DNA of 64,000 nucleotides from Dehalococcoidia bacterium. Lineage in GTDB: Bacteria > Chloroflexota > Dehalococcoidia > Lucifugimonadales > UBA1123. The position numbers and the translations under genes are program-made. Shown here piece by piece: positions 543 to 58,912 of this stretch. The notes beneath the pieces were generated by a model. The model ran no database searches. It had not been told where the DNA came from and saw only the letters and a program-made list of their open reading frames with translations. Numbering within the stretch: the stretch's first letter is position 1; the number at the start of each line of letters is the position of its first letter. Where the stretch lies: assembly GCA_965249365.1 (NCBI GenBank), contig OZ252229.1, forward strand, positions 2,117,893 through 2,181,892, in the 5' to 3' direction.

Positions 543-2240
543 ATGACAGGATCCGGACTTGTATCCGGTGGTGACCTGATCGCCAGGTCACTAAAGCTTG
601 AAGGCGTCACTACGGTCTTCACGTTGGCCGGCGATCACATCCTTCCCTCACTCGATGTCATGGCCGACGCCGGATTCCGGTTCATCGATACGCGCCACGA
701 GCAGGCGGCGGCGCACATGGCCGACGCATGGGGTCGGATCACCGGCGGGCCCGGCGTGGCGATGTACACGACACCCGGATTCGCGAACGCGATCCCAGGA
801 CTGGCTAACGCGTCGCACTCGGAGAGCCCCCTCCTCTCAATCAGCGGCTGCGCGGAGCTGCACGAGCTGGGCAGGGGAGCGATGCAGGAGATCGACCAGA
901 TCGGTATGGCCAGCCCGGTCACCAAGGGCTCTTGGATGGTCACCGATGCCCGGCGAATCCCGGACATCATCGCGACGGCGTTGCGTGTCGCCTACGAGGG
1001 ACGGCGAGGGCCGGTCCACCTCACGATTCCCGTCGATATACAGCAGCAGCTCGTGCCGGTCGACGAGGTCTCCTTCTACCAGCCTAACGAGTACCGCGGC
1101 CTCGGCGCGCCGCGGGCGTCCGATGACAGGATCGGGGACGCAATCGATGTACTGAGACACGCGGAGCGCCCCCTGATCATCGTGGGAAGCGCCGGCGCAT
1201 ACTCGGACTCCGGAGAGGCCCTTGAACGCCTCGTCGAGACCACGGGTGTCCCGATCATGACCGAGGGCGACGCCAGAGGCCTGATCTCGGACGCGCATCC
1301 CCGCTGCTACGGTTTCTTCGACTCGGGCCTCAATCGCGCAGCGCGGCTCCTGCGGGACGCCGATGCAATCGTCCTGATGGGCCGCAAACAAGACCTGATC
1401 GTCGGATATGCGATGCCACCCACAGTCTCGTCTGATGCGAGGATCATCCAGATCGACCCGTCCGCGGCAGAGATAGCGAGAAATCGGGGCGTCGCGGTCG
1501 GCATCGTTGGCGATGTCGAGGCGGTCGCGATGCAGCTCGCCGAGGAGGCCGTCAAGTACCGGTGGACGCCCCTTACCGCCTGGCTGAAGCGGCTGAACGT
1601 GGAGCGCGAGGCGCAGGCGGAATCGCTTGAGTCGCTCGCGCAACCCGAGTCACCGATGCACGCTACTTACGTTCACAAGGCGATCAGGAACCAAATCAGA
1701 GCCGACGACTTTATGGTGTTCGACGGCGGCGACTTCTGCCACTTCGGGCGCGCCTATGCGCCGGCGCTGTCGCCGAAGCGATGGTGGTACCTGCCAACGT
1801 CCGGGATGCTCGGGCAGTCCCTCCCTACGGCCCTCGCGGCCAAGGCCGCCCATCCCGACCGGAGGGTCTTCGTCTTTACCGGCGACGGGGCGTTCGGGTT
1901 CAATGGGATGGAGTACGATACGGCCGTCCGGCACAACCTGCCGATCATCGGTATCATGGGAAACGACTCCGCCTGGGGAATCGACAGGCAGATCCAGCTC
2001 GGTGTCTATGGCAAGCCCGTCGCGACCGACCTGCTTCCTTCCAGGTATGATCAGGTCGTCCGTGGCCTGGGAGGATACGGGGAGCTGGTTGAGCATCCGG
2101 ACGAGCTCGGACCCGCCGTCGAGCGGGCGATCAAGCTCGACCGGCCCGCGCTCCTCAACGTCATGGTGCAAAACGCGATTAGCCCGCGCGCCGAAGTCGC
2201 GATCAACAGGTGGAAGAGCCACTCGCCTCTGCCAATGTAA
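543..2240 (+). CDS. Thiamine-pyrophosphate-dependent enzyme (acetolactate synthase large subunit / oxalyl-CoA decarboxylase-like)
   Basis: 565-aa ORF. It has the N-terminal TPP pyrimidine-binding pattern (RHEQAAAHMADAWGR) and the C-terminal TPP motif GDGAFGFNGMEYDTAVRHNLP..GNDSAWG. A GGAG Shine-Dalgarno precedes the ATG. Confidence 0.85.
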   Translation: MTGSGLVSGGDLIARSLKLEGVTTVFTLAGDHILPSLDVMADAGFRFIDTRHEQAAAHMADAWGRITGGPGVAMYTTPGFANAIPGLANASHSESPLLSISGCAELHELGRGAMQEIDQIGMASPVTKGSWMVTDARRIPDIIATALRVAYEGRRGPVHLTIPVDIQQQLVPVDEVSFYQPNEYRGLGAPRASDDRIGDAIDVLRHAERPLIIVGSAGAYSDSGEALERLVETTGVPIMTEGDARGLISDAHPRCYGFFDSGLNRAARLLRDADAIVLMGRKQDLIVGYAMPPTVSSDARIIQIDPSAAEIARNRGVAVGIVGDVEAVAMQLAEEAVKYRWTPLTAWLKRLNVEREAQAESLESLAQPESPMHATYVHKAIRNQIRADDFMVFDGGDFCHFGRAYAPALSPKRWWYLPTSGMLGQSLPTALAAKAAHPDRRVFVFTGDGAFGFNGMEYDTAVRHNLPIIGIMGNDSAWGIDRQIQLGVYGKPVATDLLPSRYDQVVRGLGGYGELVEHPDELGPAVERAIKLDRPALLNVMVQNAISPRAEVAINRWKSHSPLPM

Positions 2241-2263
2241 CCGATACGGAGACCACTGCCAAA

Positions 2264-2842
2264 GTGTTCAGGTCGATCTTCGGAGGAAAGAAGAAGCAGT
2301 CTCAGGACCGCGTCCGCGCGGACGACTCGATCCGCTCGGCACGGGCGGGGGATGTCGTACTGATCCCCGGATTCTGGGACGACGGGGAAGACGCTTACCT
2401 GATCGTCGAGGAGATCAACCGCGTCGAGTCGGGATATGGCGAGTCGCACGAGGTGATCGGTGTCGACGGCGACCGGTCCGCGACAATCGAGTGGACCGAT
2501 CACGACGGGCTTCACATCTCGGCGATTCGGCAGGATCGGCCGATGGGTCTCTCGGTGTTGGGTGTCGACAGTGAGACGTTGACAAGGTGGGATACAAACA
2601 AGTCGCTCGACAACACCGTCAACTACGACGGACACGTCTACCGGTACCGGAACAGCTTCGAGTCCATCTATTTCAAGGGTGCAAGTCTCGAGGGCGAGGG
2701 GAACTGGACGTGGGAATTCGTCAGGGATGACGACGAAGGGGCTATCACGGTGGTAAAGTGGGGGGGCGTACCATTCGAAGTGTACGTGTCAGAGGCAATC
2801 TCGCCCCACATCGTCACGGTCTACACGAAGGGAAAGGGTTAA
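2264..2842 (+). CDS. DUF4178-like protein
   Basis: The ORF ends at 2842. I prefer the GTG at 2264, which has GGAG upstream and avoids the 31-nt overlap produced by the track start at 2210. The family call comes from remembered sequence character and from the adjacent DUF350 gene. Confidence 0.55.
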   Translation: MFRSIFGGKKKQSQDRVRADDSIRSARAGDVVLIPGFWDDGEDAYLIVEEINRVESGYGESHEVIGVDGDRSATIEWTDHDGLHISAIRQDRPMGLSVLGVDSETLTRWDTNKSLDNTVNYDGHVYRYRNSFESIYFKGASLEGEGNWTWEFVRDDDEGAITVVKWGGVPFEVYVSEAISPHIVTVYTKGKG

Positions 2843-2843
2843 A

Positions 2844-3731
2844 ATGGCAGACGCGTTCCTCAACGTCATTGAGACGATCCCGCGGGGACTCGTCTATGTA
2901 GTGATCGGAGTCGTGGTGCTGGTCATCGCCAGGCTGGTTCAGGACTTCCTCACCCCGTATAAGATTCAGGACCAGCTCAGCGACAGGGACAACGTCGCGC
3001 TCGCCCTGAGCATAACCGGCTACTATCTGGGAGTGATCATCGTCTTCCTCGGCGGAATGTACCAGCCGTACGTAGTGATCGCCGACAACAACCTCGGGTT
3101 CACCACGGCGTATTGGCAGGAGGTCGGACTCGTCTTCGGTTACTCCGTCGCCGGGATTATCGTCCTGAACATCGCCAGGATCGTCGTCGATAGGCTCGTG
3201 CTGCACGGGTTTAGTACCGAGAATGAGATCGTCACCGATCACAACGTCGGTACCGGCGCCGTCGAGGCCGCGGTCTACGTGTCGTCCGGACTGGTCATCG
3301 CCGGAGCGATCTCAGGTGAAGGAGGAGGCCCCGAAACCGCGCTGGCCTTCTTCGCCTTGGGCATGGTCGCCCTGATCATCTACGCGCTGGTGTACGAGTG
3401 GACCACTTCGTTCGACATTCACGACGAGATCGAGAAGAACAATGTCGCCGTCGGGGTCGCGCTGGCAGGGAACCTGATCGCGATCGGGGTCGTGGTGTTC
3501 AAGGCGGTATTTGGGGACTTCGTCGGATGGGGTGAGAGCATCGCCGGATTCCTGACCTACGCGATAGTCGGCTTCGTCCTCTTATACGCCGTAAGGTTCC
3601 TGGCTGACCTCGTCCTCTTTCCCGGAGTCAAAATCTCGGACGAGTTGGTAAATGACCGCAATGTTGGCGCCGCGTTCATCGAAAGCGCCGCGGTTATCAG
3701 CGTCAGCCTGATCCTCTTCTTCGCGATCTAG
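2844..3731 (+). CDS. Integral membrane protein with repeated DUF350-type modules
   Basis: 295-aa hydrophobic ORF. It has four repeats of the pattern D.(L/I)...(D/N)NVA/G followed by a TM helix (QDQLSDRDNVALAL, ENEIVTDHNVGTGA, HDEIEKNNVAVGVA, SDELVNDRNVGAAF). Confidence 0.6.
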   Translation: MADAFLNVIETIPRGLVYVVIGVVVLVIARLVQDFLTPYKIQDQLSDRDNVALALSITGYYLGVIIVFLGGMYQPYVVIADNNLGFTTAYWQEVGLVFGYSVAGIIVLNIARIVVDRLVLHGFSTENEIVTDHNVGTGAVEAAVYVSSGLVIAGAISGEGGGPETALAFFALGMVALIIYALVYEWTTSFDIHDEIEKNNVAVGVALAGNLIAIGVVVFKAVFGDFVGWGESIAGFLTYAIVGFVLLYAVRFLADLVLFPGVKISDELVNDRNVGAAFIESAAVISVSLILFFAI

Positions 3732-3842: not shown

Positions 3843-4646
3843 TTAGCCTCGCCGAAGAGTTCCGCCGCCGCCGGTGAATCCACTCCCGGACCTGCCGAAC
3901 GAGCTCCCCCTCGAGCTGCTGCCCCATGACGACCGAACGCCTGTCCCGCTCGACTTGAAAGCGCCCGACGATCTCTGGTTGCTCAGATAGCTCTGCCTCG
4001 AAGAGCTGACACTCCGTCCCGCCTGATCGTAGGCGGACCCCCGGAACGACTTCTGGTTCTGGAAGTAACGCGTGTTCCGCGATACCTGGTTCCGGTAGTT
4101 GGCCGAGTTCCGGTATCCGGATCGATTTCGGCTGATCGTGTCGTAGTTCTGCCTCGGCGTCCTGTAGGAGTAGTAGCCGCCGACCGGCATGACCGCTCTC
4201 AGTAGCAGATAGCTGAACAGGAAGTTTCCCGCTCCGAAGCTGCTGCGGTAGTATGAGTTGGCCCCGTACCCTGTCATCTCGTGTGTGTCGTGGGCCTCGA
4301 CGATCGAAAACAGCCGATCGTCGGTCGCATCCTCGATCACGCCCGACGAGTTGAGGTCCTCCCATCCTTCCAGGACCATCTTCTCCCCGTCCTGCTCGAC
4401 GCGAATCAGCACGACCCCGTCGCCCTCGTAGATCGCGTTCACCCGTCCCTCAAAGGTCGACGCGCTATCGGACTGCTTGAACGCCTCTTGGACTTCGTCG
4501 AGGTTTATTCGTCCGGCCGCCCCGTCCGTCGCCGCCCAGGCCTCGTAGGTCGGACCCTCGTCGCAAGCCGCGGCAACCGGACCGGCGATCAGCGAGACCC
4601 CGGCGATTGCAGCGATGGTCGTCTTGTTGACTCTACGTCTCTTCAT
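3843..4646 (-). CDS. Lipoprotein with small N-terminal domain and long N/Q/S/R/G/Y-rich low-complexity C-terminal tail
   Basis: 267-aa ORF with a signal peptide and lipobox-like GPVAAAC. The last roughly 130 aa are compositionally biased (YRNSANYRNQVSRNTRYFQNQKSFRGS...SSSRGSSFGRSGSGFTGGGG). It lies 18 nt downstream of the SecA-like gene on the same strand. Confidence 0.7.
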   Translation of the reverse strand: MKRRRVNKTTIAAIAGVSLIAGPVAAACDEGPTYEAWAATDGAAGRINLDEVQEAFKQSDSASTFEGRVNAIYEGDGVVLIRVEQDGEKMVLEGWEDLNSSGVIEDATDDRLFSIVEAHDTHEMTGYGANSYYRSSFGAGNFLFSYLLLRAVMPVGGYYSYRTPRQNYDTISRNRSGYRNSANYRNQVSRNTRYFQNQKSFRGSAYDQAGRSVSSSRQSYLSNQRSSGAFKSSGTGVRSSWGSSSRGSSFGRSGSGFTGGGGTLRRG

Positions 4647-4664
4647 GTCACCACCGGGTACATT

Positions 4665-7568
4665 CTAACAGGTCAGGAGCTTGCATAGCTCGATCGGAAG
4701 CTCCTCGACCGGGCCAACGTCCACAATTGAGGTCCCCCCGATTTCAGAATCCGCGACCAGCGAGTCGATGACCGAGTCGGCCGCCATGGCACGGAGCTCT
4801 GCACCGGCGGTCCGGGCTTCCTCCGAGAATCGAGTCATCGCAGCCGCGTGGGAGTACGCACCCAGCGAGATGGACAGAGCCATGTCTTGGAGCAGGGCGA
4901 GGTGGTCTGGCCAGCGTTCGTCGACCGCGTTCAGGAATAGCTCCGACAGCCTGCGGCCAAACGCCTTCGGACCGAAGATAGTTCGATGATGAAACAGCCT
5001 GGCCTCGACCTCCCGATCGAGGATCTCGATGACCTCCGCCGGAGTGAGCTCCGCCGGTCCGGGCAGGGGAATTCCGAAGTCGTCTTCCAACGACATACGG
5101 ACCGACTCGTATCTCTCGTCATAGTCAATGCTGATTTCATACAAGGGGGCGGTTCGATGACGCACCCACTCTTCGCGACGCGCCGCAAGGTAGTCCGAAG
5201 CTGCCTCCCGGCCCATCAGCGACTCTCGGAACGCGTAGTACCCCCGGGATTCCCGCTCGATAACCGCCGAAAACTCCGAGGTCCAGGCGTCCGCGGCGCG
5301 GTCCTGTGACTCCGCGTCCTCTTGCGCCTTGACAAGCGCTGCCCGCACTTCTGGTCCCGAGACGCGGTCATGTGCCCGTCCCGGCATTGCCATGATGTCT
5401 CGCTGATGCCTGGAGAACGCCAACACCGGGTCCCCGATGTAGACAGAGGCCTTTGCAGCTCCTGTTCCGCCCTGACGCCCGGTACGGCCTCTGATCTGAC
5501 GCTCGACGCGCCGCGACGCCGGGAGCGACGCCATCAGGACGAGCAGCCCGGAGCCGGAGGTCACGCCATCATCCTCTCGCGACTCAACAACTATGTCCGT
5601 CCCACGGCCCGCCATCGCGGTGGCGACGGTGACCGCGCCGAGCCCTCCGGCCTTCGCCACGATCTCCGATTCCCTGGACGTGGTGGCGGCGTTCAGGACC
5701 TCGTGTTCCACCCCTCGTTCGATGAGAGCCTGGCTGAACGCGAGGGACAGCGCGACTGTGTCGACTACAAGGAGGACGGGTCTGCCCTGGCTGTTCCAGT
5801 ACACGACCTCACTCACGACTTGCCTGGTATGCGTCTCGCGGTCGAAGAACACCTCGCTGTCCTCGTCGACGCGCCGCGAGGGGACGCTTGGGGGAACAGC
5901 GACGGTCGGCGCCCCGTATCGTGCGGCCAAGCGTTCGGCCTCCTCGACCGCAGTGCCCGAAAGACCTGCGATCGTGGCGTACTTTGAGACCAGCGACTGG
6001 ATAGTCGTGCGGGCCAGGGCGTGGCCGCGTCCTCGTCTTCCCACTTCCTCCTTGGCCTCGAGCGCCTCGTGCAGCCCGTCCGTGTATCTGTGGGAGAACA
6101 GCGGACGGCCGTCAAGCGGGTCGACCAACGTTACCTCGTCATCGACGATGACATAGTCCTCATCGAGCTGGTGGAGGACACGCGCGCGCAGAAGCTGAAT
6201 CACCTCGAACGCCGCGGCCAGGTCGTCGAGCCCCTCGGAGACGACTCCCCAACCGCGATCCGTTAGTCTCAGTGTCGACCCGTCCAGGTCGACCACGAAC
6301 ATCAGCTCTGCGTCGAACCCATTCTCATCCTCTGCGATCAGCCTCAGCAGGTCATCCCTGATCCGTCGTGTTGACACGCCCAGCCGCTCCAACTCCGCGG
6401 TCAGCCGTGGGGTGACTCCCCCGGCCAGCAGGACCTCCGCCAGGTCTCGTCGCACGCTTTGGGTCGCTGTCGTCTCGTCGGCACACTGCGTCAGCAGACT
6501 CTCTATCCGTTCCGCCTGACACTCGATGATCTCGGATGCCACGTCCTCCTCTACGCCCTCGACGACTGATTCGGGGGCGGCGTCGCCGGAGATTATCAGC
6601 GGAGTACGGGCCTGGTCGATTAGCTGGTGGTCCACCTCGTCGATGATTGCGATGTCGAATGCGGGACTCACCCGCCTGTCGATCGAAGACGCTATGGAGT
6701 CCCTGAGGTAGTCGAAGCCCACCTCCCTCGCCGTCGTAAAGACGATCTGCCGCGTGTACTGGTGGGTCCTCTCGTCGCGGTCCATGGCGTCAACGACCAG
6801 ACCCGGGAGGATCCCTAACGACTCGAAAGCAGGGGCGAGATGCTCGCAGTCGCGGGAGGCCAGGTAGTCGTTGGCCGTCAGGACGTCGACGCGCCGACCT
6901 GCCGCGGCATAGACCGACGCCGCTATCGCTGACGCCAGGGTCTTGCCCTCGCCGGCGTCCATCTCGACGATCGCTCCCCTTAGAAGTAGAGCCGCGGCCG
7001 CAATCTGCTCAAGCGTTGGAACGAAGACCAGACAGCCTGAGTCGTCGAAGTCCGTCAGGCTCTGGTAGAACCCCGCGGGGAGCAGAATGTCGGCGTGGTA
7101 CTCCGTGCGGCTCCGGGCGAGAGCAATGACCAGCCAACGAAGCACGGACTCAGAACCCGGTGGGACCGGCGCCTGGCTCGCCGCAGAGGCAGCCCAACTC
7201 TCGACGGACTTGAACTCACCAGGCCGTGGTACGCGGTCTCTTGACGCGCGGTAGATCAGCTCGTCGGCCGCCAACCTCAAGGACTTCACTGGCCCCGACA
7301 GATTCTCCGCGTCGAGCAGCACTGCCCCCCAGATTCCGATCCGCCTGCGGATCGCGGTCTCGACGGCGACGATCGCCATGACGATTCGATCCGTGTCCAA
7401 CCCGTGATGTTCGTCGCTCGCCGCGTCCATCAGCCGCGAGCGCAGGTCCCAGTCGGAAGACGCCCCGTTTGTCTCCGCACGGACACGATTCGCGACGTCC
7501 ATCGCCCACGACAGCGTTGGCGGGTCCGTACCACGACCAAGGACGGCGGACATTCGGAGGTTGGTCAT
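4665..7568 (-). CDS. Divergent SecA-family ATPase (SecA paralog with N-terminal extension)
   Basis: 967 aa. SecA signature motifs are present: MDAGEGKTL (Walker A), VLTANDYLASRD, GFDYLRD, IIDEVDHQLIDQARTPLIISG, PPXD-like DEDYVIVDDEVTLVDPLDGRPL..RYTDGLHEALEAKE, LSGTA, VLNA, TAMAGRGTDI and RGRTGRQG. About 190 aa precede the NBD. The ATG overlaps the upstream stop (ATGA). Confidence 0.85.
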   Translation of the reverse strand: MTNLRMSAVLGRGTDPPTLSWAMDVANRVRAETNGASSDWDLRSRLMDAASDEHHGLDTDRIVMAIVAVETAIRRRIGIWGAVLLDAENLSGPVKSLRLAADELIYRASRDRVPRPGEFKSVESWAASAASQAPVPPGSESVLRWLVIALARSRTEYHADILLPAGFYQSLTDFDDSGCLVFVPTLEQIAAAALLLRGAIVEMDAGEGKTLASAIAASVYAAAGRRVDVLTANDYLASRDCEHLAPAFESLGILPGLVVDAMDRDERTHQYTRQIVFTTAREVGFDYLRDSIASSIDRRVSPAFDIAIIDEVDHQLIDQARTPLIISGDAAPESVVEGVEEDVASEIIECQAERIESLLTQCADETTATQSVRRDLAEVLLAGGVTPRLTAELERLGVSTRRIRDDLLRLIAEDENGFDAELMFVVDLDGSTLRLTDRGWGVVSEGLDDLAAAFEVIQLLRARVLHQLDEDYVIVDDEVTLVDPLDGRPLFSHRYTDGLHEALEAKEEVGRRGRGHALARTTIQSLVSKYATIAGLSGTAVEEAERLAARYGAPTVAVPPSVPSRRVDEDSEVFFDRETHTRQVVSEVVYWNSQGRPVLLVVDTVALSLAFSQALIERGVEHEVLNAATTSRESEIVAKAGGLGAVTVATAMAGRGTDIVVESREDDGVTSGSGLLVLMASLPASRRVERQIRGRTGRQGGTGAAKASVYIGDPVLAFSRHQRDIMAMPGRAHDRVSGPEVRAALVKAQEDAESQDRAADAWTSEFSAVIERESRGYYAFRESLMGREAASDYLAARREEWVRHRTAPLYEISIDYDERYESVRMSLEDDFGIPLPGPAELTPAEVIEILDREVEARLFHHRTIFGPKAFGRRLSELFLNAVDERWPDHLALLQDMALSISLGAYSHAAAMTRFSEEARTAGAELRAMAADSVIDSLVADSEIGGTSIVDVGPVEELPIELCKLLTC

Positions 7569-8866
7569 TCGTCGGTTTCGCCCGGCAGCAGCGTTCGCAT
7601 AGGACGTCTCAGTGAAGCCGGGTCTATTCCCGCCTTCAGCGCCGCCAGGATGCCGGCGGCCTCCCAGTAGTTCTCAGCGACGTGCAACTGGCCGGGCGCC
7701 CACGGTAGTGTGGACAGGTCGTTGCGCATGAGGTTGCGGCTCTCACGGACGGTGATGACCCGGATCCCTTGGTGGAGCGCCGCCAGCGTCGGAATCCCCA
7801 GGCATCCGTCTGGGATGACCAGGCAGTCGACGTCCTCGGCGGTTAGCGCGTCGCTCTGGTCCGACAGGGTCTCACCGGTAACGATCCGAGGCGCGCGGTG
7901 GAGGCCCTTGAGAACGCACTGCAGGAACGTCATCGAGACGATCTCAGCCGCCATTCGCGCGTCTACGATCCCGGGATCGATCGCGGCGACTTCGTCCGAC
8001 TCCATCATCGGTGAATGTGCCGCCGGCAGGTCGAGAACCGAGGACACGGCGTGGGTCAGCAGCGCCTCTACACCCCCCCAAGGATTGACCATCTCTCCTC
8101 CACTGGTGAAGTAGTCGTAGTGGTACTCGGTCGGTACTTCGATGACGGTGACCAGGGCGATGGCGTCGTAGCTCCCGCTTCTTTCGCTAAGCATGTTGAG
8201 CAGCGGCGCGAGCCCCTCGACCGTACCGGAGGCGCGCCCAGACGCCGTGTATCCGGCCACTACGTTGAGCGGAGGGTCGATCTCCATGATCTCCGGGCAG
8301 TTCAGCCCGTAGGTCGCCCGCCCCGCGTTCACCGCGTTGACCGAATACTGTCCAAACTTCGGATTGAAGCTTGAGTCGATCGCAACCAGGACCCGATTCG
8401 ACCGCGAAGGGCGGAGCCCGGCAGTGCCCATGAGCAGGCGGGAAAGCACGCTGCCCTCGACGTATAGGCCGTTGGGGGGCAACTCGTTTATGTCCGACGC
8501 GTTGACCACGTTAGGATGAGTGATCAGCGTGTCAGCCACCTCCGCGATCGCGATCGCGGCCGGCGTAGCGTCCCCGGCGTGGCCGCCAATCTCGGCGCCG
8601 ATTCCAGTTGGAACGACGAATACGACGTTGAACTCGGACTGGTCTTCGTACTCCCGGCGTCTGAACGCGAATACCGGCGGCATCGAGTCTACGGAGATGC
8701 CCTGTGCGACTCCGATCTCGCACTCGAAACGCCCATCGATCGATCTGGTGACGTTGAAACGGACCGGCGACTCGTCGTCTGCCAGCGTCCGGCCCACCTC
8801 GTCCGCGATGTCCGGAAACTCGATCGAGTCCCGGCTTATCGAGACCTGGCGCTCAAGTAGCCGCAA
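7565..8866 (-). CDS. Conserved hypothetical protein, DUF3326-like (family name from memory)
   Basis: 433-aa ORF with the motif VVPTGIGAEIGGHAGDATPAA. The TTG start overlaps the upstream gene by 14 nt, and the stop overlaps the SecA-like start by 4 nt. Confidence 0.6.
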   Translation of the reverse strand: MRLLERQVSISRDSIEFPDIADEVGRTLADDESPVRFNVTRSIDGRFECEIGVAQGISVDSMPPVFAFRRREYEDQSEFNVVFVVPTGIGAEIGGHAGDATPAAIAIAEVADTLITHPNVVNASDINELPPNGLYVEGSVLSRLLMGTAGLRPSRSNRVLVAIDSSFNPKFGQYSVNAVNAGRATYGLNCPEIMEIDPPLNVVAGYTASGRASGTVEGLAPLLNMLSERSGSYDAIALVTVIEVPTEYHYDYFTSGGEMVNPWGGVEALLTHAVSSVLDLPAAHSPMMESDEVAAIDPGIVDARMAAEIVSMTFLQCVLKGLHRAPRIVTGETLSDQSDALTAEDVDCLVIPDGCLGIPTLAALHQGIRVITVRESRNLMRNDLSTLPWAPGQLHVAENYWEAAGILAALKAGIDPASLRRPMRTLLPGETDE

Positions 8867-10061
8867 CGGTCATCGCCCCATTGCGGTCAAGGAACTCTCG
8901 GTACTCGTATCGTGAAACAAGTTGGAAGCGGCTCTCGTCGTCCATCATGTAGGCGTCAGGGACGGGAATCCCGTTGAAGGGAGCGGCGCGTGAGTGTGTG
9001 TACGCCCCGGAGTCGAGGATCGCCAGCCGCTCCCCGGTTGAGACCGGAGCCCCGAATCGATACTCGCCGACAACGTCGCCTGCGAGACACGACCGGCCCG
9101 CCAGCGTCACAGGGTGCCGAGAACCCGCCTGCGGGCCCACCACCGCCGGCCTGTATCCGTACTCGAACACCTCTGGCAGGTGACTCGTGGAGGTATCCAG
9201 GACCGCGATGTCCACGCCGTCATGCCTGAACACGTCCAGCACCTCGGTAACCAGAAACCCCGCGTTCTGAACGAGGGTGGTGCCCGGCTCGACGAAAACT
9301 TTCAGCCCGAACTCGCTCGACAGCCAGTTCACGGCCTCGACCAGCGGCCCGGCGTCCGTCTCTGAGCCGAGGTAGTAGCCGCCGCCCAGGTTGATCCACG
9401 TGAGCCATTCGAGCCGCATGAGCACGTCGTTCAGCGAGAAGACCGTCTCGGCAAGCTGCCCGAGGTCGTCCGACTCACAGTTGTTGTGGACGTGAATCCC
9501 ATCGACCGCGCATGCCGCTGCCGGCAGTGGCGAAGCGGACGACAAGGCTGATACCTGGACCCCCAGCTTGGAGCCTGGACGACACGGGTCGATCCGGACA
9601 TCCGAGGCGAACGACACCTCAGGGTTCACTCGCAGCCCGAGCGACGCCCGTCCGTCGTTCATCTGAAGCGCGGACGCGACCTGTGCGTACGAATTGAGCG
9701 TCACGTAGTCGGCGAGTGAGAGGACTTCCGCCATCTCGGCGCCCGAGTAGGCTGGGGAGTAGCAGTGAATCGACTGCCCTCGAGTCGCGACGGACGCGGC
9801 GATCCGCGCCTCGAAGGCGGCGCTCGCCGCAAACCCCTCTACGCAGGGGGCCAGCGCCTCCAGCACCGGTACAAGCACGCTAGGCTTGAGCGTGTATAGA
9901 AGATTGCAGCCCGCTTGCGACGCAATCACAGAGGCGTGGTTGGCGTTCTCCCGAAGCACCGCCGTAGAGTAGACGTACGCCGGCGTCGTTGGAACGTCCA
10001 ATGCCGCCCACGCCTGCGATTCAACCTGTTGATCCAATTCTACGGTCACCCCCAGAACCAA
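8853..10061 (-). CDS. Carboxynorspermidine/carboxyspermidine decarboxylase-like PLP-dependent decarboxylase
   Basis: 402-aa ORF. Motifs resemble the NspC family: LYTLKP (candidate PLP lysine), HVHNNCES, NLGGGYY, EPGTTL, GRSCLAGDVVGEY and FNGIPVP. The start is uncertain (TTG at 10061; alternatives at 10049 and 10037). Confidence 0.7.
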   Translation of the reverse strand: MVLGVTVELDQQVESQAWAALDVPTTPAYVYSTAVLRENANHASVIASQAGCNLLYTLKPSVLVPVLEALAPCVEGFAASAAFEARIAASVATRGQSIHCYSPAYSGAEMAEVLSLADYVTLNSYAQVASALQMNDGRASLGLRVNPEVSFASDVRIDPCRPGSKLGVQVSALSSASPLPAAACAVDGIHVHNNCESDDLGQLAETVFSLNDVLMRLEWLTWINLGGGYYLGSETDAGPLVEAVNWLSSEFGLKVFVEPGTTLVQNAGFLVTEVLDVFRHDGVDIAVLDTSTSHLPEVFEYGYRPAVVGPQAGSRHPVTLAGRSCLAGDVVGEYRFGAPVSTGERLAILDSGAYTHSRAAPFNGIPVPDAYMMDDESRFQLVSRYEYREFLDRNGAMTVAAT

Positions 10062-10076: not shown

Positions 10077-11456
10077 TTACACCAACTCCCTTAGCTGGAT
10101 GACCGCCAGTCCCATCTCCGGGCTGCCCCCTTCGAACCTCCGGTATCGCGCAAGCAGGTGATCGTAGCAGTCCAGGACATACCCTGCGGCCTCCGGGTCG
10201 GACTCCTGGAATCTCAACCCTATCCGCCCGTCGAGATTCCACTCGGCGCGGACCTCGAATTCCAGACTGTTCGGTCCGGCCAGGTTTCCGTACAGCTCCA
10301 CTAGCCCGTCGAACTCCTCGTCGTCTCGAAACGGGGCCGGGGATACCAGGAATTCAGGAGTGATCGTCAGCCCGAGCTCGTTGTCGAACACCTGAACCAG
10401 ATCGATCTCCGGGATGAAGCTCTCCATCGCGTAGCAGAGGCCCTCTCCCAGGTCGTCCGGCGCCCTGTGGTAGTAGAACTCCTCGTCGTATGTCGCCATG
10501 CGCACCGGCAACGGACGCTGATCGTTGAGGATCTCGGAGCAGCGCGACCCTCGCTCGAAGAGAAAGGGGATGTTTCCGTTCGTCGCGTCGACCAACAGCG
10601 GTTCCTCGTCGAGTCGAAACTCGAGCGCCAGATGCTGCCAAAATCGCATGGCGTCCTGCGCGCCATGGAAGTCGAACGACTCCAGGACGTGCCTGAGTCG
10701 CTCGGTCGGTAGTGGTCCTATAGCGTCCGGTCCCGCGAAAACGTACCCTGGGTCAAAGCCGTACGCGTCAGCAATGAACCTGAGCGCCTGCACCTTCTCG
10801 GAACAGATACCGCCGCGGCCTTCAATGATGTTCAGGATCGTCTCGTCCCCGGTCTTGTACGGCAGCTTCGGCCCGGAGAACCGCGAGTAGTTCTCGAAGG
10901 GACTGTCCCAAATTGCGCGGGCAACGCGGTGGAGGAACTCAAGCCGCCCCTCTTTCGTACCGAGCAGCGGCTGTAAGGCGCCCTGCGAGTCGTACTCGTC
11001 GGAAAGGGCTGCGTCTACGAAGCTCCGAAACAACGGCTCATTCCGCTCCCAACGCCGGCGATTGAAGCCGGTCCAGTTGCGAGAGTAGTCGCACTCGCTG
11101 CGGTCGATCAAGACGTCGACGAGCTGCACGTCCGTACCTCCCAACGTGGCAGGTATCCACGGCGGAGGCGCACCCGCGTCCAGCGCGTGCGGACCGTCCC
11201 TGAGCACCGTCTTAGGGTGCAAGGGCCCGGGATAGCCGTCGTCCTCGAGCAGGAGGACAAGGTCCCGGAGCGTCTCGAACGCCTCCAGGTCCTCGGGCAG
11301 CAGACGGTTTCCGGCGACCAGCGGTCCAACGTCCTCAACCTCGAGATACAGCCCTGTAAGTTGCCTCAGGGTTAGGTCCGAGTCCTCATCCGCGGTCCTA
11401 AGGACGCAGGACCTCCCGGTCAGGTAGTCGGTCCATCTGAGGAAGAGTGGGAGCAT
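10077..11456 (-). CDS. Transglutaminase-like (Cys-His-Asp papain-fold) protein
   Basis: The ORF runs to 11474. I prefer the ATG at 11456 because of the GAGAGG Shine-Dalgarno. The core pattern RGGICSEKVQALRFIADAYGFDPGYVFAG ... WQHLALEFRLDEEPLLVDATNG resembles the transglutaminase-core arrangement G.C..F/A...GIP.R.V.G / H.W.E / D.T. Confidence 0.55.
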   Translation of the reverse strand: MLPLFLRWTDYLTGRSCVLRTADEDSDLTLRQLTGLYLEVEDVGPLVAGNRLLPEDLEAFETLRDLVLLLEDDGYPGPLHPKTVLRDGPHALDAGAPPPWIPATLGGTDVQLVDVLIDRSECDYSRNWTGFNRRRWERNEPLFRSFVDAALSDEYDSQGALQPLLGTKEGRLEFLHRVARAIWDSPFENYSRFSGPKLPYKTGDETILNIIEGRGGICSEKVQALRFIADAYGFDPGYVFAGPDAIGPLPTERLRHVLESFDFHGAQDAMRFWQHLALEFRLDEEPLLVDATNGNIPFLFERGSRCSEILNDQRPLPVRMATYDEEFYYHRAPDDLGEGLCYAMESFIPEIDLVQVFDNELGLTITPEFLVSPAPFRDDEEFDGLVELYGNLAGPNSLEFEVRAEWNLDGRIGLRFQESDPEAAGYVLDCYDHLLARYRRFEGGSPEMGLAVIQLRELV

Positions 11457-11513
11457 CCCGCCTCTCAGCGACAAGGGTTCCGGTCAATCCGCCAGTTGCA
11501 GGTTGTGGGCCAG

Positions 11514-11542
11514 ATCATAGCTGTGCCCTCAGACGCGGTCAA
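11514..11542 (-). promoter_or_regulatory. Putative sigma70-type promoter for the minus-strand operon (TTGACC-17 nt-TATGAT)
   Basis: The hexamers were read on the reverse complement, about 60 nt upstream of the ATG at 11456. Confidence 0.4.
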
Positions 11543-11642
11543 ACGGCAGACCGCTGATACTTTTCGTTCCCGCGGAGGAAAACGCGGCAAATGTACCGCC
11601 GATCGTGCGCGTGTCTCGAAGCCCTGCCTGCGATATAATCGG

Positions 11643-12383
11643 ATGATGACGTCGACACGTCCCAGCCCTCTCCATACCGCGTTGGTCGCTCTACTCGTGG
11701 CGCTCACTCTGTCGCTTGCCTGTGGGCAGGCGGAGGAGTCCGCCGAGCTTGTCAGCGCGCAGCCGACCGCAGCTCCCACTACACCCTCTCCGACTTTCAC
11801 TCCGATTCCTCCTAGTCCCACTCCACAGCCGTCGCCGACCGCAACACCCGTGCCGCCGACGCCGACGCCGCGCAAACTCGAGCCAACCGTCACGGCCACT
11901 CCCGCTCCGACGCCCGTCACCATCAGGCGCCCCTCCTCGGCGTTTCCGGCCATCGAGTTCCAGATCGAAACTTTCGCGGGCGAGACACTCGCCCTGTCGG
12001 ACCTGGAAGGGCAGGTTGTTGTCCTCAACTTCTGGGCTTCGTGGTGTCCCCCCTGTCGATGGGAGATGCCGTTCTTCGAAGAGATATCCCAGGAGTACAG
12101 CGGTCAGGACGTGACCTTCTTTGGTGTCGCCGTGTCGGACACCCTGGAGAACGCGGCTGGATTCGCAAACATGGTCGGTGTTACATATCCGAACGGGTTG
12201 GATGCGTCCGGGCGGATTGGTAGAGAGTACGAGGTGCGGTCGCTCCCCACGACCTTCCTGATCGATAGGGAAGGGGTGGTGCAGCGACGGGTCGCAAACG
12301 CGGTCCCGGAAGCGATCCTGAGGATCTTTATCGACGGTCAATTGAAGTCGCCCCCGGGTGCAAAACCAGAGGTCTTAAATTGA
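11643..12383 (+). CDS. TlpA/ResA-family thiol:disulfide oxidoreductase lipoprotein with Pro/Thr-rich linker
   Basis: Signal peptide and lipobox (LSLAC), a P/T/S-rich linker, then a thioredoxin fold with WASWCPPCRWEMP. The ATG at 11643 is chosen inside the longer track ORF. Confidence 0.8.
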   Translation: MMTSTRPSPLHTALVALLVALTLSLACGQAEESAELVSAQPTAAPTTPSPTFTPIPPSPTPQPSPTATPVPPTPTPRKLEPTVTATPAPTPVTIRRPSSAFPAIEFQIETFAGETLALSDLEGQVVVLNFWASWCPPCRWEMPFFEEISQEYSGQDVTFFGVAVSDTLENAAGFANMVGVTYPNGLDASGRIGREYEVRSLPTTFLIDREGVVQRRVANAVPEAILRIFIDGQLKSPPGAKPEVLN

Positions 12384-12409: not shown

Positions 12410-12435
12410 CCCCGTGCTTGAGAGGTCGGTTTCAG

Positions 12436-12573
12436 ATGCCAAAGCGAACATATCAGCCGAAGAATAGACGGCGCGCTCGCGTGCACGGGTTCAGGTCAAG
12501 AATGCGGACACGCGGCGGAAGATCCGTATTGAAGAGGCGCATGTTCAAGGGCAGGCAGAGGCTCACCGTCTGA
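12436..12573 (+). CDS. rpmH: 50S ribosomal protein L34
   Basis: Hand translation gives [45 protein letters not shown] (45 aa). It is below the ORF-track cutoff and sits upstream of rnpA as in most bacteria. Confidence 0.95.
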
Positions 12574-12636
12574 TCCGGACAAACCGGCATCTGTAGCGCC
12601 CCAGGCGACCTCACGCAGCTGTTCTGGGGAGAGTCG

Positions 12637-12975
12637 ATGGACAGGGCGGGCCGCCTCCGGAAAACCAGGGATTTCGAAACGGTACGACGGGAAGGGAATA
12701 GCTGGTCCGATCGAAGACTCGTCCTCGTCGCCAGGCCAACCGGCGCGCCGAGGACGCGGATCGGATTCGCGGTCAGCAGCCGGCTCGGAAATGCCGTTGT
12801 CCGAAACAAGATAAAACGAAGGTTGAAGTCGGCCGCCGCCGAGCTTGCTCCGAAGTCAGGATGGGACCTGGTGGTCATAGCGAGGATCGGATCGAAGGCG
12901 ACAGGCTTTCAGGACTTGAAGAGGTCGTTGAGCCGGTTGATAGTCCGGGGCCGTCTTAACGAGAATCAGCAGTAA
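12637..12975 (+). CDS. rnpA: Ribonuclease P protein component
   Basis: 112-aa basic ORF containing FAVSSRLGNAVVRNKIKRRLK. Its position between rpmH and yidD supports the call. Confidence 0.9.
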   Translation: MDRAGRLRKTRDFETVRREGNSWSDRRLVLVARPTGAPRTRIGFAVSSRLGNAVVRNKIKRRLKSAAAELAPKSGWDLVVIARIGSKATGFQDLKRSLSRLIVRGRLNENQQ

Positions 12976-12980
12976 TCCGT

Positions 12981-13208
12981 GTGGGTGGTATCAGAGTGAC
13001 AAGGAACGTGGCGCTCGGGGCAATCAGGTTGTACCAGGTTGCGGTCTCACCCTACCTGACTGGACTGTGCAGGCATTCGCCGACCTGCTCGAACTACGCA
13101 TATGAGGCAATCGTCAGACACGGACTGGGTCGGGGCGCGTGGTACGCCATGAAGCGCCTCATGCGCTGCCGTCCAATGGGCACTCGCGGCTTTGATCCCG
13201 TTCCATAG
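12981..13208 (+). CDS. yidD: Membrane protein insertion efficiency factor YidD
   Basis: 75 aa. Contains IRLYQ..SP......CRHSPTCSNYAYEAI..HG...G.W.A.KRL.RC.P. Confidence 0.9.
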   Translation: MGGIRVTRNVALGAIRLYQVAVSPYLTGLCRHSPTCSNYAYEAIVRHGLGRGAWYAMKRLMRCRPMGTRGFDPVP

Positions 13209-13261
13209 CTCCCTGTTCTGTACTGAATAGCCAGGATGCCCGGACGCCGGGCATCACCACT

Positions 13262-14449
13262 ATGAACACTTACCACAGCTCAGCTACCAAGACCGTCAAG
13301 CGGTCGCCGGTGGCGCTTATCATCGTACTCATCCTCGCCGCGCTCTTTGTGGGCGCGTGCTCCAGCAGCGGGTGCGAGCGATTCAGCAATCCTCAGGGAT
13401 GGTCTTCCGGCACTGTCAGCGGCGACGACCTCTACATCGGCACGATGGAGGGAGAGGTCCTTGCCGTGGAGAAAGAGACCGGAGATCAGCGGTGGCGCAA
13501 GGCGCTCCCGACCGAAGAAGATCTCGATCGGGGCATCTATGGGGCGCCCGCGGTTACCGACGATGTTGTGCTGGTTGGCGGCTACGACGGCGTGCTGTAC
13601 GCGTACGACCGGCAGGGCGACCAGCTCTGGCAGGAACGCTTTCCCGGCAGGATCGTCGGAGGGCCCACGGTCTACGGCAACCTCGCTCTCGTCGGAACAG
13701 GGTCCGTGGGCCAGTCGCGAGGATCGAGAGGCGCCCTCTACGCGATCGACATCCAGGAAGGCGATCCCGTCTGGAGCTACAACACTTCAGGGCCGATTTG
13801 GTCCTCGCCGGCCGTGGTTGACGGCGTCGCCTACGTCGGCTCACTCGATCATCACGTGCATGCCGTGAACGTATCCGACGGGACCGAGAAGTGGAGCTAC
13901 AAGACCGGAGGCGCGGTCGTCTCCGGATTTGCCGTCCATGACGGCCTGGTCATGTTCGGAGGATTTGACAGCACGTTCTACGCGCTCGACGCTGATTCCG
14001 GAAACCTCGTCTGGGACTTTCACGGCTCGACCCGATGGTTCTGGGCGGCCCCACTCGTGCACGATGGGACCGTTTACGCGCCCTCTCTCGACGGCACGCT
14101 CTACGCCCTGGACGTCCAAACCGGCAGCCTCGAATGGCGATACACGACAGAGGGCCAGCTTGTTGGCACGCCCGCGGTCGTGAATGACCTGATCGCCGTA
14201 CCGGTTGCGGATGGCGGAAACTCGAAGATCGTTCTGATCGAGTTCAATGGCGCTGAACAGGGCGCCTGCCTGATCGGTGATGACGTCCGCACCTCGATTG
14301 AGGTTTCAGGCGACCTGATATACTTTGCCTCAACCGACCACACAATCAGGGCCCTTCGGATCAAGGGCACCGGCAACCCCGACGAGGAGTGGGTGTACGT
14401 GACCGACGCGGACAACCCTTACCCTCACGACCGGGCAAAGGCGTGCTGA
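13262..14449 (+). CDS. PQQ-like beta-propeller repeat lipoprotein (BamB-like fold)
   Basis: 395 aa with a signal peptide and Cys (FVGAC). It carries repeated G.(L/V)YA(L/V)D..(T/D)G...W motifs typical of PQQ-like propeller blades. Confidence 0.8.
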   Translation: MNTYHSSATKTVKRSPVALIIVLILAALFVGACSSSGCERFSNPQGWSSGTVSGDDLYIGTMEGEVLAVEKETGDQRWRKALPTEEDLDRGIYGAPAVTDDVVLVGGYDGVLYAYDRQGDQLWQERFPGRIVGGPTVYGNLALVGTGSVGQSRGSRGALYAIDIQEGDPVWSYNTSGPIWSSPAVVDGVAYVGSLDHHVHAVNVSDGTEKWSYKTGGAVVSGFAVHDGLVMFGGFDSTFYALDADSGNLVWDFHGSTRWFWAAPLVHDGTVYAPSLDGTLYALDVQTGSLEWRYTTEGQLVGTPAVVNDLIAVPVADGGNSKIVLIEFNGAEQGACLIGDDVRTSIEVSGDLIYFASTDHTIRALRIKGTGNPDEEWVYVTDADNPYPHDRAKAC

Positions 14450-14453
14450 TAGA

Positions 14454-15386
14454 TTGGAATTCTTAGAGTTCCTGGCTGACACCTGGAATCTAGTCATCAT
14501 CCAGCCCATGATAAATGGGCTGGTTCTGCTATACTCGTCGCTCTTCTCCAACTTCGGAATCGCTATCATCGCGTTCACGCTGCTGGTCAGGGTTATCATG
14601 ATCCCGCTGACTGTCAAGCAGAGTCGCCAGATCAAGGCGATGTCCGCGCTCCAGCCGCTGATGAAGGAGATCCAGGAAAAGTACAAAGGAGATCGGGGAC
14701 GGGCATCACGGGAGACGATGGCGCTCTACAAGGAGCGGGGCGTCAATCCGATTGGCTGCTTGGGACCCATGTTCATACAGTTCCCGATCTGGATCGGGCT
14801 GTACCAGTCGATCATTCAGACCGTGCCATCCGCCCCCGAAAGTCTCGTCAGCCTGTCTCGACACCTCTACGACTGGCTCCCACAGGTGCACAGCGTCATC
14901 CCGATCGACAGCGGTTTCCTCTGGATGGACCTGGCCAGGCCGGACCCCTCCCCGATAGTCATGCCGATCCTGGTCGGCGTTTCGATGTGGATGATGCAGA
15001 AGATGACGACGATGCCCACGGCCGATCAACGTCAAGCGTCGACCAACAGGATGATGCTTTGGATGATGCCGGCCATGTTCGGCTTCTTTACCTTGAATTT
15101 CCCGAGCGGCCTCGCGGTCTACTGGGTAGTCTCGAACGTGGTTGGTCTGGTGATCCAGGGATTCGTGACCGGTTGGGACCCGATTTTGAACCTGTATAAG
15201 TTTGGTCGCGGAAGTACCGAAGAGATCGCAACGGCCTCTGCGCTTGCACCCGCGCCGACTGCCCCCGCCGAGGAGACGAATGATGCGCGAGATGGAGATG
15301 TCCGCCAGAACGGTGGAAGAAGCAATCGAGGTCGCCCTAAAGGAGCTAGACGCCGCTCGCAGCGACGTCGAAATCGACGTCGTTAG
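14454..15386 (+). CDS. yidC: Membrane protein insertase YidC (short type) with Arg-rich C-terminal tail
   Basis: 310 aa. It has the conserved core ..TLLVRVIMIPLTVKQ..S...M..LQP.M.EIQEKYK.D......E.M.LYKE.GVNP..GCLP..IQ.PI. and the tail RRRSQRRRNRRR. Confidence 0.9.
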   Translation: MEFLEFLADTWNLVIIQPMINGLVLLYSSLFSNFGIAIIAFTLLVRVIMIPLTVKQSRQIKAMSALQPLMKEIQEKYKGDRGRASRETMALYKERGVNPIGCLGPMFIQFPIWIGLYQSIIQTVPSAPESLVSLSRHLYDWLPQVHSVIPIDSGFLWMDLARPDPSPIVMPILVGVSMWMMQKMTTMPTADQRQASTNRMMLWMMPAMFGFFTLNFPSGLAVYWVVSNVVGLVIQGFVTGWDPILNLYKFGRGSTEEIATASALAPAPTAPAEETNDARDGDVRQNGGRSNRGRPKGARRRSQRRRNRRR

Positions 15387-41191: not shown

Positions 41192-41202
41192 AGGAGGTTC
41201 GA

Positions 41203-58042: not shown

Positions 58043-58319
58043 TGATCTCTCCCAGTTTCAAAGCATACGCAGCCGCTTTCGGCTGCGTTTTGTGTTGAGT
58101 GAACGAACGCGGTGACTCCCCGATTCGAAGCGCCCACAGTGTACAAGAAACCGCCAATCCGTCACAACAGCCGCGAGCTGTCCGGACTGGTAGGAATGCC
58201 ATCGTTTGTCACGAGTCCCTATTCCAGCCCATCGGGCGAGAGGAGTGAGGGGGGTCGCCCTCCGGGGCGCGAGGAAAGAGGAGAGAGGAAAGAGGAACGA
58301 GGAACGAGGAACGAGGAAA

Positions 58320-58912
58320 GAGAGGGGTTGGTTGGGGATGAGGTTGATTCCGTGTGACTGTTAGTGGGTCGCCGCGGGCGGGGCGATGGAGGCACTGGGA
58401 GCGCGGGCGGCCTGAGGAACGAGGAAAGAGGAACGAGGAAAGAGAGGGGTTGGTTGGGGATGAGGTTGATTCCGTGTGACTGTTAGTGGGTCGCCGCGGG
58501 CGGGGCGATGGGGGCACTGGGAGCGCGGGCGGCCTGAGGAACGAGGAAAGAGGAACGAGGCGAGAGGGGTTGGTTGGGGATGAGGTTGGTTTCGTGTGGC
58601 TGTTAGTGGGTCGCCGCGGGCGGGGCGATGGGGGCACTGGGAGCGCGGGCGGCCTGAGGAACGAGGGAGGAAGAGGAACGAGGAAAGAGAGGGGTTGGTT
58701 GGGGATGAGGTTGATTCCGTGTGACTGTTAGTGGGTCGCCGCGGGCGGGGCGATGGAGGCACTGGGAGCGCGGGCGGCCTGAGGAACGAGGAAAGAGGAA
58801 CGAGGAAAGAGAGGGGTTGGTTGGGGATGAGGTTGATTCCGTGTGACTGTTAGTGGGTCGCCGCGGGTGGGGCGATGGAGGCACTGGGAGCGCGGGCATC
58901 TTGCCCGCTTGG
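58320..58912 (+). repeat. Noncoding tandem array, 5 copies of a unit of about 122 nt, preceded by a purine-rich lead-in from about 58271
   Basis: Units start with gagaggggttggttgggg at 58320, 58442, 58562, 58687 and 58809 (periods 122, 120, 125, 122). Each unit contains gtgggtcgccgcgggcggggcgatgg, ggcactgggagcgcgggc and a gaggaacgaggaaagagg tract. The last copy ends in the full hairpin gcgggcatcttgcccgc. Confidence 0.9.

Follow-up and report, generated by a model that had tools for sequence, protein, structure and literature searches.

A 64,000-nucleotide stretch of contig OZ252229.1 from a Dehalococcoidia bacterium (positions 2,117,893 to 2,181,892 of the forward strand), called the window below, encodes a SecA-like ATPase that belongs to a lineage-specific family. 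The two halves of its motor are intact and the substrate clamp, the preprotein cross-linking domain (PPXD), is conserved, while the parts through which canonical SecA contacts lipid, the SecY channel and SecB, ribosome or zinc have been replaced. It is highly probable that the gene is a paralog, implying a second, canonical secA in the genome, and the chances seem to us evenly balanced that its product is an accessory, still-translocating SecA-type ATPase and not the general export motor. The gene and the regions of its product are as follows.

Positions 4665–7568, minus strand: SecA-like ATPase gene, an intact open reading frame (ORF) of 967 codons translated into 967 residues.
Positions 7335–7517, minus strand: residues 18–78, counterpart of the N-terminal helical segment of canonical SecA (LSDxxL...AVRRRxG), from hhalign and the family alignment.
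Positions 7014–7334, minus strand: residues 79–185, insertion of four helices peculiar to the family, located before the Q-motif-like 'PTxEQ' of nucleotide-binding domain 1 (NBD1).
Positions 6579–7013, minus strand: residues 186–330, core of NBD1 with Walker A (GEGKT), the DEVD box and TPLIISG.
Positions 6330–6557, minus strand: residues 338–413, insertion of four helices into the base of the PPXD, as seen in the AlphaFold2 (AF2) model.
Positions 6057–6317, minus strand: residues 418–504, core of the PPXD (Pfam SecA_PP_bind, E = 5.5e-13).
Positions 5409–5963, minus strand: residues 536–720, NBD2 with TGTA, MAGRGTDI and RGRTGRQG (Pfam P-loop_SecA).
Positions 4752–5354, minus strand: residues 739–939, scaffold helix, wing domain and two-helix finger, formed by long helices in the model.
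Positions 4668–4706, minus strand: residues 955–967, C-terminal motif of the family, similar to ERLPxELxxLI, in place of the zinc-binding tail.

The ORF had been located correctly in a first-pass annotation of the sequence, with no strand given, and all of the SecA motor signatures quoted there are present in the translation, which contains VEMDAGEGKTL, IIDEVDHQLIDQARTPLIISG, DYVIVDDEVTLVDPLDGRPLFSHRYTDGLHEALEAKE, AMAGRGTDI and RGRTGRQG. The DEVD/TPLIISG motif reads DEVDHQLIDQARTPLIISG, and the PPXD block reads DYVIVDDEVTLVDPLDGRP...GLHEALEAKE. Together, the Walker A, Walker B, III, V and VI motifs define a DEAD-type motor. Pfam assigns SecA_DEAD (E = 4e-61, restricted to profile positions 81–289), SecA_PP_bind, P-loop_SecA and a weak SecA_SW of 34 bits in the scaffold, wing and finger region, where the fold is retained and the canonical sequence motifs are gone. 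The AF2 model, built from 30 relatives, has a predicted local distance difference test (pLDDT) value of 78 and a predicted template-modelling (pTM) score of 0.75. The top 36 PDB matches found for this model by Foldseek are exclusively SecA or SecA2, with TM scores of 0.69–0.76 for the full-length matches, and the highest score, 0.76, belongs to SecA in the substrate-engaged SecA–SecY complex (6itc). A complete set of domains, comprising the PPXD, scaffold, wing and two-helix finger, is found by Pfam and Foldseek, and the fold of each of these parts is kept in the model. The protein is thus predicted to have the complete SecA fold (NBD1, PPXD, NBD2, scaffold, wing and two-helix finger), in agreement with the earlier description of a full-length SecA-type protein.

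The motor is conserved in detail throughout the family. The Walker A lysine and the aspartate and glutamate of Walker B are invariant in all 32 members compared, as are the arginine of motif V and both arginines of motif VI. Walker A and TPLII are separated by 116 residues in 28 of the 30 members in which the distance could be measured, compared with 116–117 residues in 8 of 11 canonical SecA proteins, and TGTA and MAGRGTD are separated by 117 residues in every measurable member (29/29) and in 7 of the 8 canonical sequences that allow the measurement. In the PPXD, the core block LDGRP...GLHEALEAKE is invariant across the close family (alignment A1). These observations bear directly on the proposal that the gene is a decaying, non-functional remnant of a duplicated secA. 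Such a remnant would fit the high divergence and the loss of several canonical motifs described below, but the 967-codon ORF is intact, more than 200 clusters of full-length relatives exist, the catalytic residues are invariant with exact motor spacing, and the position in the operon is conserved together with the overlap of start and stop codons. We regard this explanation as very improbable indeed, and as that of a pseudogene it is effectively refuted by the pattern of conservation in catalytic residues and spacing.

The distance from described SecA proteins is best seen in the scores of curated models. Each of the NCBIfam models for SecA or SecA2 matches the protein below its cut-off (314–426 bits, compared with cut-offs of 725–1493), the best score being 426 bits for a cut-off of 862. 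For the equivalog models of canonical SecA, TIGR00963 and NF009538, the scores are 400 and 404 bits (cut-offs 800 and 814); other members of the clade reach 451–543 bits against these canonical equivalogs, also below cut-off, whereas two canonical SecA proteins used as controls score 1017–1262 bits on the same models. The strong divergence remarked upon in the first-pass annotation is therefore real. The SecA2 models give a similar result, with 349 bits for the mycobacterial type (TIGR04221, cut-off 725), 348 bits for SecA2 of the accessory Sec (aSec) SecA2/SecY2 system (TIGR03714, cut-off 930), and 361 and 314 bits for the Bacillus/Listeria type (TIGR04397 and NF012136, cut-offs 1085 and 1100), so that the protein is, as had been suggested, not one of the known SecA2 types. 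Sequence matches to solved structures are closest for SecA2 of C. difficile (292 bits), followed by SecA of B. subtilis (288 bits), SecA2 of M. tuberculosis (277 bits) and SecA of E. coli (274 bits). Judged by these scores, the protein is about equally distant from the SecA1 and SecA2 structures, and it belongs to no curated SecA or SecA2 family. Since it retains the full fold and fails all equivalog cut-offs, it represents a complete SecA fold outside every curated SecA/SecA2 family. Its identity to canonical SecA is approximately 28%.

The N-terminal region was described previously as an extension of about 190 residues. Indeed, 186 residues precede the Pfam motor match, and the distance to Walker A is 205 residues in the SecA-like protein compared with ~102–107 in canonical SecA. 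A plain extension is, however, ruled out, both by the profile–profile alignment in hhalign, in which residues 18–78 of the family align with residues 20–83 of canonical SecA (probability 96.6%, E = 6e-10), and by the existence of relatives in which the additional segment is absent; the alignment of relatives to TIGR00963 reaches back to profile positions 6–10. With a homologous N-terminal segment in place, the net addition must be a helical insertion of ~100 residues. In the AF2 model, residues 92–110, 122–132, 140–155 and 165–174 of this insertion are helical, mostly with pLDDT values of 84–91. The length of the region corresponding to residues 79–185 is 0, ~50 or ~100 residues across the family; it is absent from six relatives (L009, L010, L012, L014, L017 and L043), and the junction without it reads 'EAIRRKL-SFRATEEQ' in L010. 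A search with residues 1–196 against 1.84 billion representative proteins returned 20 matches, consisting of full-length family members and short fragments.

A second insertion is located at the base of the PPXD (residues 338–413), where it adds 60–90 residues and is carried by all 30 relatives measured. It is also visible in a column-by-column comparison with canonical SecA, and it is reflected in the distance from TPLII to TGTA, which is 210–256 residues in 30/30 measurable members and 150–184 residues in 9 of 11 canonical proteins, the other two, from Opitutae, extending up to 263. Neither this insertion nor the conserved operon described below had been noticed in the first-pass annotation. 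Most relatives, but not the window protein, contain a third insert of 60–100 residues after MAGRGTDI.

The remaining differences concern elements of known function in canonical SecA, in which the extreme N terminus binds lipids, the tip of the two-helix finger acts at the SecY channel, and the C-terminal tail serves in binding SecB, the ribosome and zinc. The canonical start, of the 'llxklfg' or 'MLxKxFGS' type, is not conserved in the family; the first ~17 residues have no aligned counterpart in canonical SecA, are variable or missing among members, and do not form its amphipathic extreme N terminus. The cysteine-rich zinc tail is absent as well and the C terminus is ~50 residues shorter than in canonical SecA, so that in both respects the translation and alignments bear out what had been noted earlier. 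Leu957, Pro958 and Leu961 of the motif found there instead are invariant in alignment A1, and the ends of distant members carry related motifs such as EEILSILA or EDVxxILV. In NBD2, the block GTERHESRRIDNQ (the 'HESRRID' region) has been lost. The scaffold motif yDDVmNxQRxvIY is lost too, its arginine being kept in none of 32 members, and so is the motif LRxYxQxDPLxEYK of the two-helix finger, with the finger proline likewise kept in 0/32. A tyrosine at the tip of the finger is present in a single member of the 32, the window protein itself (LGAYSH), and its place is taken in the others by Glu, Thr, His, Ser, Arg, Ala, Pro and other residues; a conserved finger loop with a bulky hydrophobic tip is therefore not a feature of the family.

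At least 120 relatives were found in a protein search with the window protein, all of those listed sharing its architecture, and a search with L010, a distant and the least diverged member, added at least 120 more, where again all those listed belong to the family, with scores of at least 667 bits. The names given by NCBI to the listed relatives are 'hypothetical protein', from metagenome-assembled genomes (MAGs) of Dehalococcoidia or Chloroflexota (for example MCY4652108.1, HIB13012.1 and MCH7652872.1), and a few are labelled 'SecA' in IMG. In a scan of one genome per GTDB species, the loci with the signature context of the family are all from MAGs of Dehalococcoidia/Chloroflexota, save for one unclassified Tara Oceans bin. 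Many of the carriers are closed chromosomes of 3–5 Mb, and closed genomes with the family include OY761144.1, OZ242284.1, OZ220685.1, OZ247432.1, OY282442.1 and OZ240240.1; one sponge MAG and one Tara Oceans bin are also among them. Nothing relevant came out of literature searches on SecA2 or SecA paralogs from SAR202, Dehalococcoidia or Chloroflexi, and the supplements examined from SAR202 papers contain no entry for SecA, K03070 or COG0653. The family is apparently undescribed, as we found no publication on it and it falls outside every curated model. Among the PADLOC defence models, the SecA-like protein gives only a chance-level match to Cas3e (E = 0.002, 14.6 bits) and its neighbours give none; as no component model was matched, a role in anti-phage defence was dropped.

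A neighbour-joining tree was calculated for canonical SecA from seven phyla, other families of SecA-like paralogs and the Dehalococcoidia proteins. The Dehalococcoidia proteins form one clade (99 of 100 bootstraps), and the longest internal branch of the tree carries the subgroup of the window protein. Within the family, which is limited to one class, the median identity is 39% and the minimum 26%, whereas canonical SecA proteins from seven phyla have a median of 48% and a minimum of 41%; between the two groups the median is 30%. Best high-scoring segment pairs with the window proteins, taken at the same loci, have 35% identity for the SecA-like protein, 38–42% for the products of the first and second operon genes and of the DUF4178-like gene introduced below, 54% for DUF350, 55% for the lipoprotein and 57% for DUF3326. 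In near relatives, the flanking thiamine pyrophosphate (TPP) enzyme is ~80% identical, compared with 42–53% for the SecA-like protein. To judge from these identities, the family evolves fast, far faster than canonical SecA between phyla.

This rate bears on the possibility that the gene is the sole, housekeeping SecA of these organisms, diverged across the whole class. Several observations are in keeping with it: no second SecA-like sequence is present in the 64-kb window or in the 84 loci fetched, which cover ~2% of a genome; the gene lies in a stable chromosomal region beside rpmH–rnpA–yidD–yidC, both in the window and in a distant relative; and it is found in every related Dehalococcoidia locus examined, with a tree that looks vertical. 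Against it, the gene outpaces in divergence not only its lipoprotein, DUF350 and DUF3326 neighbours but also canonical SecA compared between phyla, positions that canonical SecA requires for its function are free to vary, and the operon genes that surround it look accessory. SecA is among the most conserved of bacterial proteins, and Dehalococcoides, of the same class, presumably has a regular SecA, as it is listed with one. We therefore consider a sole SecA improbable.

Short SecA-like proteins (~630–800 residues) were observed in eleven of the fetched loci (L042, L044, L047, L051, L058, L061, L066, L069, L071, L076 and L077), in hosts belonging to Acidobacteriota, Planctomycetota, Proteobacteria and Fibrobacter. 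The C-terminal third is missing from them, and in the tree they are placed separately from canonical SecA.

The SecA-like gene is fourth in a series of five closely spaced genes of the same strand, which we read as an operon. It is not linked to secD and secF, which are found in the window at 39269–42120, as noted earlier. The genes of the operon and of its immediate surroundings, with the SecA-like gene located between the lipoprotein and DUF3326 genes, are these.

Positions 10077–11474, minus strand: first gene of the operon, encoding an orphan of 459–465 residues (465 in the window) with a fold of the arylamine N-acetyltransferase (NAT)/transglutaminase type.
Positions 8853–10061, minus strand: pyridoxal phosphate-dependent decarboxylase of 402 residues (Pfam Orn_DAP_Arg_deC), similar to carboxynorspermidine decarboxylase (NspC), overlapping the DUF3326 gene by 14 nt.
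Positions 7565–8866, minus strand: DUF3326 protein of 433 residues (Pfam DUF3326, E = 9e-94).
Positions 3843–4646, minus strand: lipoprotein of 267 residues, directly downstream of the SecA-like gene with its start 19 nt away, containing a signal peptide, the lipobox VAAAC and a globular domain.
Positions 11514–11542, minus strand: promoter-like site TTGACC-17 nt-TATGAT upstream of the operon, taken from a consensus scan only and not evidence of function.
Positions 2844–3731, plus strand: membrane protein of 295 residues with two DUF350 (YjfL-type) units (Pfam DUF350, 176 bits), convergent with the operon.
Positions 2210–2842, plus strand: β-rich protein of 210 residues, probably a divergent member of DUF4178, encoded immediately before the DUF350 gene.

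The junctions within the operon consist of a 14-nt overlap, an ATGA overlap, formed by the ATG of the SecA-like gene and the stop codon of the preceding DUF3326 gene, and gaps of 15 and 18 nt. The most constant neighbour is the lipoprotein gene, which follows the SecA-like gene immediately and on the same strand in all 35 related loci. All but one of 37 orthologues contain the lipobox, and the tail of the protein, rich in Ser, Arg and Gly, is conserved; the lipoprotein is 53% identical to an orthologue that adjoins a SecA-like protein only ~31% identical in the N-terminal region. The gene for the 465-residue protein lies upstream on the same strand in 29/35 loci, the DUF350 gene is present in 28/35, the DUF4178-like gene in 27/35, and the pair of decarboxylase and DUF3326 genes is found within 10 kb in 26/35. 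Distant members of the family keep the SecA-like, lipoprotein, DUF350 and DUF4178 genes, and the enzymes around them vary (an AMP-binding enzyme, GNAT, a K+ channel, Usp). In L010 (5910–9822) and L082 (3226–4299), an RCK-gated K+ channel and an AMP-binding enzyme precede the SecA-like gene, in L010 together with a tandem universal stress protein (Usp), and these neighbours lend the locus a flavour of stress response.

Three of the neighbouring proteins, namely the lipoprotein and those of 465 and 210 residues, have no match in Pfam or NCBIfam, even at E = 10. The 210-residue protein could be related to DUF4178 through its positional orthologue in L082, which carries PF13785 and to which it is 35% identical (E = 4e-43). 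The 465-residue protein has 684 homologues, which occur on the same contigs as SecA-like genes; they carry no Pfam domain, and the few that have been named are 'hypothetical'. The AF2 model of the protein (pLDDT 90) matches NAT enzymes and the amide synthase GdmF in Foldseek, followed by Rad4, cysteine proteases and transglutaminase 3, and the residues Cys218, His275 and Asp290 (Cys-His-Asp) are invariant. On the basis of this modelled fold, the product is possibly a polyamine N-acyltransferase. The decarboxylase scores 242 bits against the NCBIfam model TIGR01047 for nspC, below the cut-off of 409. A decarboxylase-like protein and DUF3326 are also paired in the pavettamine pathway, where PavB (DUF3326) and PavA (with a domain similar to carboxynorspermidine decarboxylase) are needed to make the polyamine (10.64898/2026.06.12.731819). 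That pairing concerns the neighbours of the SecA-like gene and not the gene itself, and the locus described here has neither the Rieske domain nor the JmjC partner. By analogy, the NspC-like and DUF3326 pair (7565–10061) suggests an alternative polyamine route in Dehalococcoidia.

A trio of eight-transmembrane (8-TM) DUF350 protein, lipoprotein and DUF4178 protein with polyamine genes has been described as an envelope-stress module, the operons of which usually carry a PspA/CesT-like pair and a fusion of a 7TM protein with spermidine synthase (Ravi et al., 10.1101/2020.09.24.301986). What is probably the same trio stands beside polyamine enzymes in the SecA-like locus, and the window DUF350 protein has the YjfL-type arrangement of two units (8 TM) that is characteristic of the module. 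The operon differs in containing a SecA-like ATPase instead, and in its polyamine enzymes, which are NspC-like, DUF3326 and NAT-fold proteins. The lipoprotein of the published module is assigned to the 'Ctha_1186 domain', and the one encoded here, likewise a lipobox protein, may be its counterpart. Gene calls and scans of the region surrounding the SecA-like gene, in the window and in its relatives, reveal no obvious pair of PspA and CesT/Tir-like proteins.

That missing pair would suit another explanation, according to which a SecA-derived ATPase no longer takes part in export through SecYEG and acts in the cytoplasm as a membrane-associated remodeller, chaperone or regulator together with DUF350 and DUF4178, filling the PspA/CesT-type slot of related polyamine-linked envelope-stress operons. 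Loss of the motifs that handle membrane and channel (the tip of the two-helix finger, the scaffold motif, the N-terminal start and the 'HESRRID' block of NBD2) would agree with such a role, and so would the stress genes (Usp and K+ channel) near the gene in L010 and L082; the insertions of the family and its new C-terminal motif could serve as interfaces for new partners. On the other hand, the PPXD is the best conserved block outside the motor, and we know of no role for it except the holding of preproteins. The full fold of scaffold, wing and two-helix finger is retained, and the invariant neighbour is a secreted lipoprotein. This non-exporting role seems to us rather unlikely. Similarly doubtful, although worth keeping in mind, is a repurposed SecA fold in which the motor would join the 8-TM DUF350 protein, DUF4178 and the Arg/Ser-rich lipoprotein in a self-contained, polyamine-linked envelope machine; if true, a third kind of SecA-based system would exist, one that has a membrane partner of its own.

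The strong conservation of the PPXD leads us to favour an accessory SecA that still translocates over a repurposed motor that does not work with SecY. The status of paralog is deduced from the very fast evolution of the family, the loss of translocation-specific motifs and the location of the gene in an operon of non-housekeeping genes, and the gene probably serves a specialised task at the envelope and not general export. According to the translocating reading, the SecA-like protein would grip and move a polypeptide at the expense of ATP on behalf of a dedicated client. The best candidate for this client is the downstream lipoprotein, the conserved Arg/Ser-rich tail of which may suit the general pathway poorly. 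The membrane partner of the motor might be SecYEG, as it is for the 'SecA2-only' motors, or else its 8-TM DUF350 neighbour, and the whole locus could be a module for envelope maintenance tied to a polyamine made and modified locally by the decarboxylase, the DUF3326 protein and the enzyme with the acyltransferase-type fold.

Several points weigh against this proposal. No second, canonical secA occurs in the window or in the 84 loci fetched, and 'accessory' is a property that we infer. The link proposed between motor and lipoprotein is one of adjacency. Loss of the finger motif could equally mean that translocation through SecY no longer takes place, and the AF2 model, with low confidence at residues 467–513, is weakest at the tip of the PPXD. 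Finally, the polyamine genes are in some genomes several kilobases away, on the other side, and none lie within 10 kb in 9 of the 35 loci; the polyamine link is looser than that to the lipoprotein.

Comparison with known systems places these features in perspective. With canonical SecA (TIGR00963/PRK12904; PDB 1tf5, 6itc and 2fsf), the SecA-like protein shares the overall fold, the ATPase motifs, the motor spacing and a homologous N-terminal helical segment. It reaches about half of the family cut-off score, lacks the amphipathic start, the finger motif, the 'DDVxxxQR' scaffold motif and the zinc tail, and is distinguished by two helical insertions, a new C-terminal motif and a non-housekeeping operon. 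In the 'SecA2-only' systems of Mycobacterium (TIGR04221, PDB 4uaq), C. difficile (PDB 6t4h/6sxh), Listeria and Bacillus, a small number of clients are handled by a second, diverged SecA motor that has no SecY of its own. The logic is likely the same here, although the SecA-like protein is larger than canonical SecA and not trimmed, and it occurs in a different phylum with different neighbours. As in the aSec SecA2/SecY2 system of Firmicutes (TIGR03714), a diverged SecA is encoded beside its presumed client; in contrast to that system, there are no genes for SecY2, Asp or glycosyltransferases among the neighbours inspected in the window and in relatives.

Some further features of the window may be mentioned. 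Between the operon and rpmH lies a gene (11496–12383, plus strand) for a thioredoxin/AhpC-TSA protein, similar to TlpA/ResA and with a Pro/Thr-rich linker, which is conserved beside the cluster in near relatives. It is followed at 12418–15386 (plus strand), ~1 kb from the SecA-like operon, by rpmH, rnpA, yidD, a BamB-like lipoprotein with a PQQ β-propeller, and yidC; the part from rnpA to yidC also flanks the cluster in the distant relative L083. On the opposite side, the gene for the TPP-dependent enzyme (565 residues, 543–2240, plus strand) extends past the start of the DUF4178-like gene and may be co-transcribed with it and with the DUF350 gene. Farther away, a unit of 122 bp is repeated five times in tandem with 95% match at 58292–58897 (also 58270–58322 and 60242–60280); this apparently non-coding stretch contains purine-rich GAGGAAA tracts and has the most extreme GC skew in the window, +0.29. 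Neither RNA elements nor tRNAs were found in the window.

SecA is the textbook example of a universal bacterial export motor, and its known offshoots, the SecA2 systems of Firmicutes and Actinobacteria, have taught much about the choice of clients. The family described here adds a large offshoot in Chloroflexota, including groups that resemble abundant marine and sponge-associated Dehalococcoidia. Should its members prove to be the sole SecA in these genomes, the view of SecA as a tightly constrained sequence would be overturned. The family also offers a first handle on the widespread and uncharacterised envelope modules that combine DUF350, DUF4178, a lipoprotein and polyamine genes. With the ATPase engine kept exact, the parts contacting lipid, channel and chaperone rewritten, and two helical modules added, it constitutes a natural experiment on which parts of SecA are needed for what.

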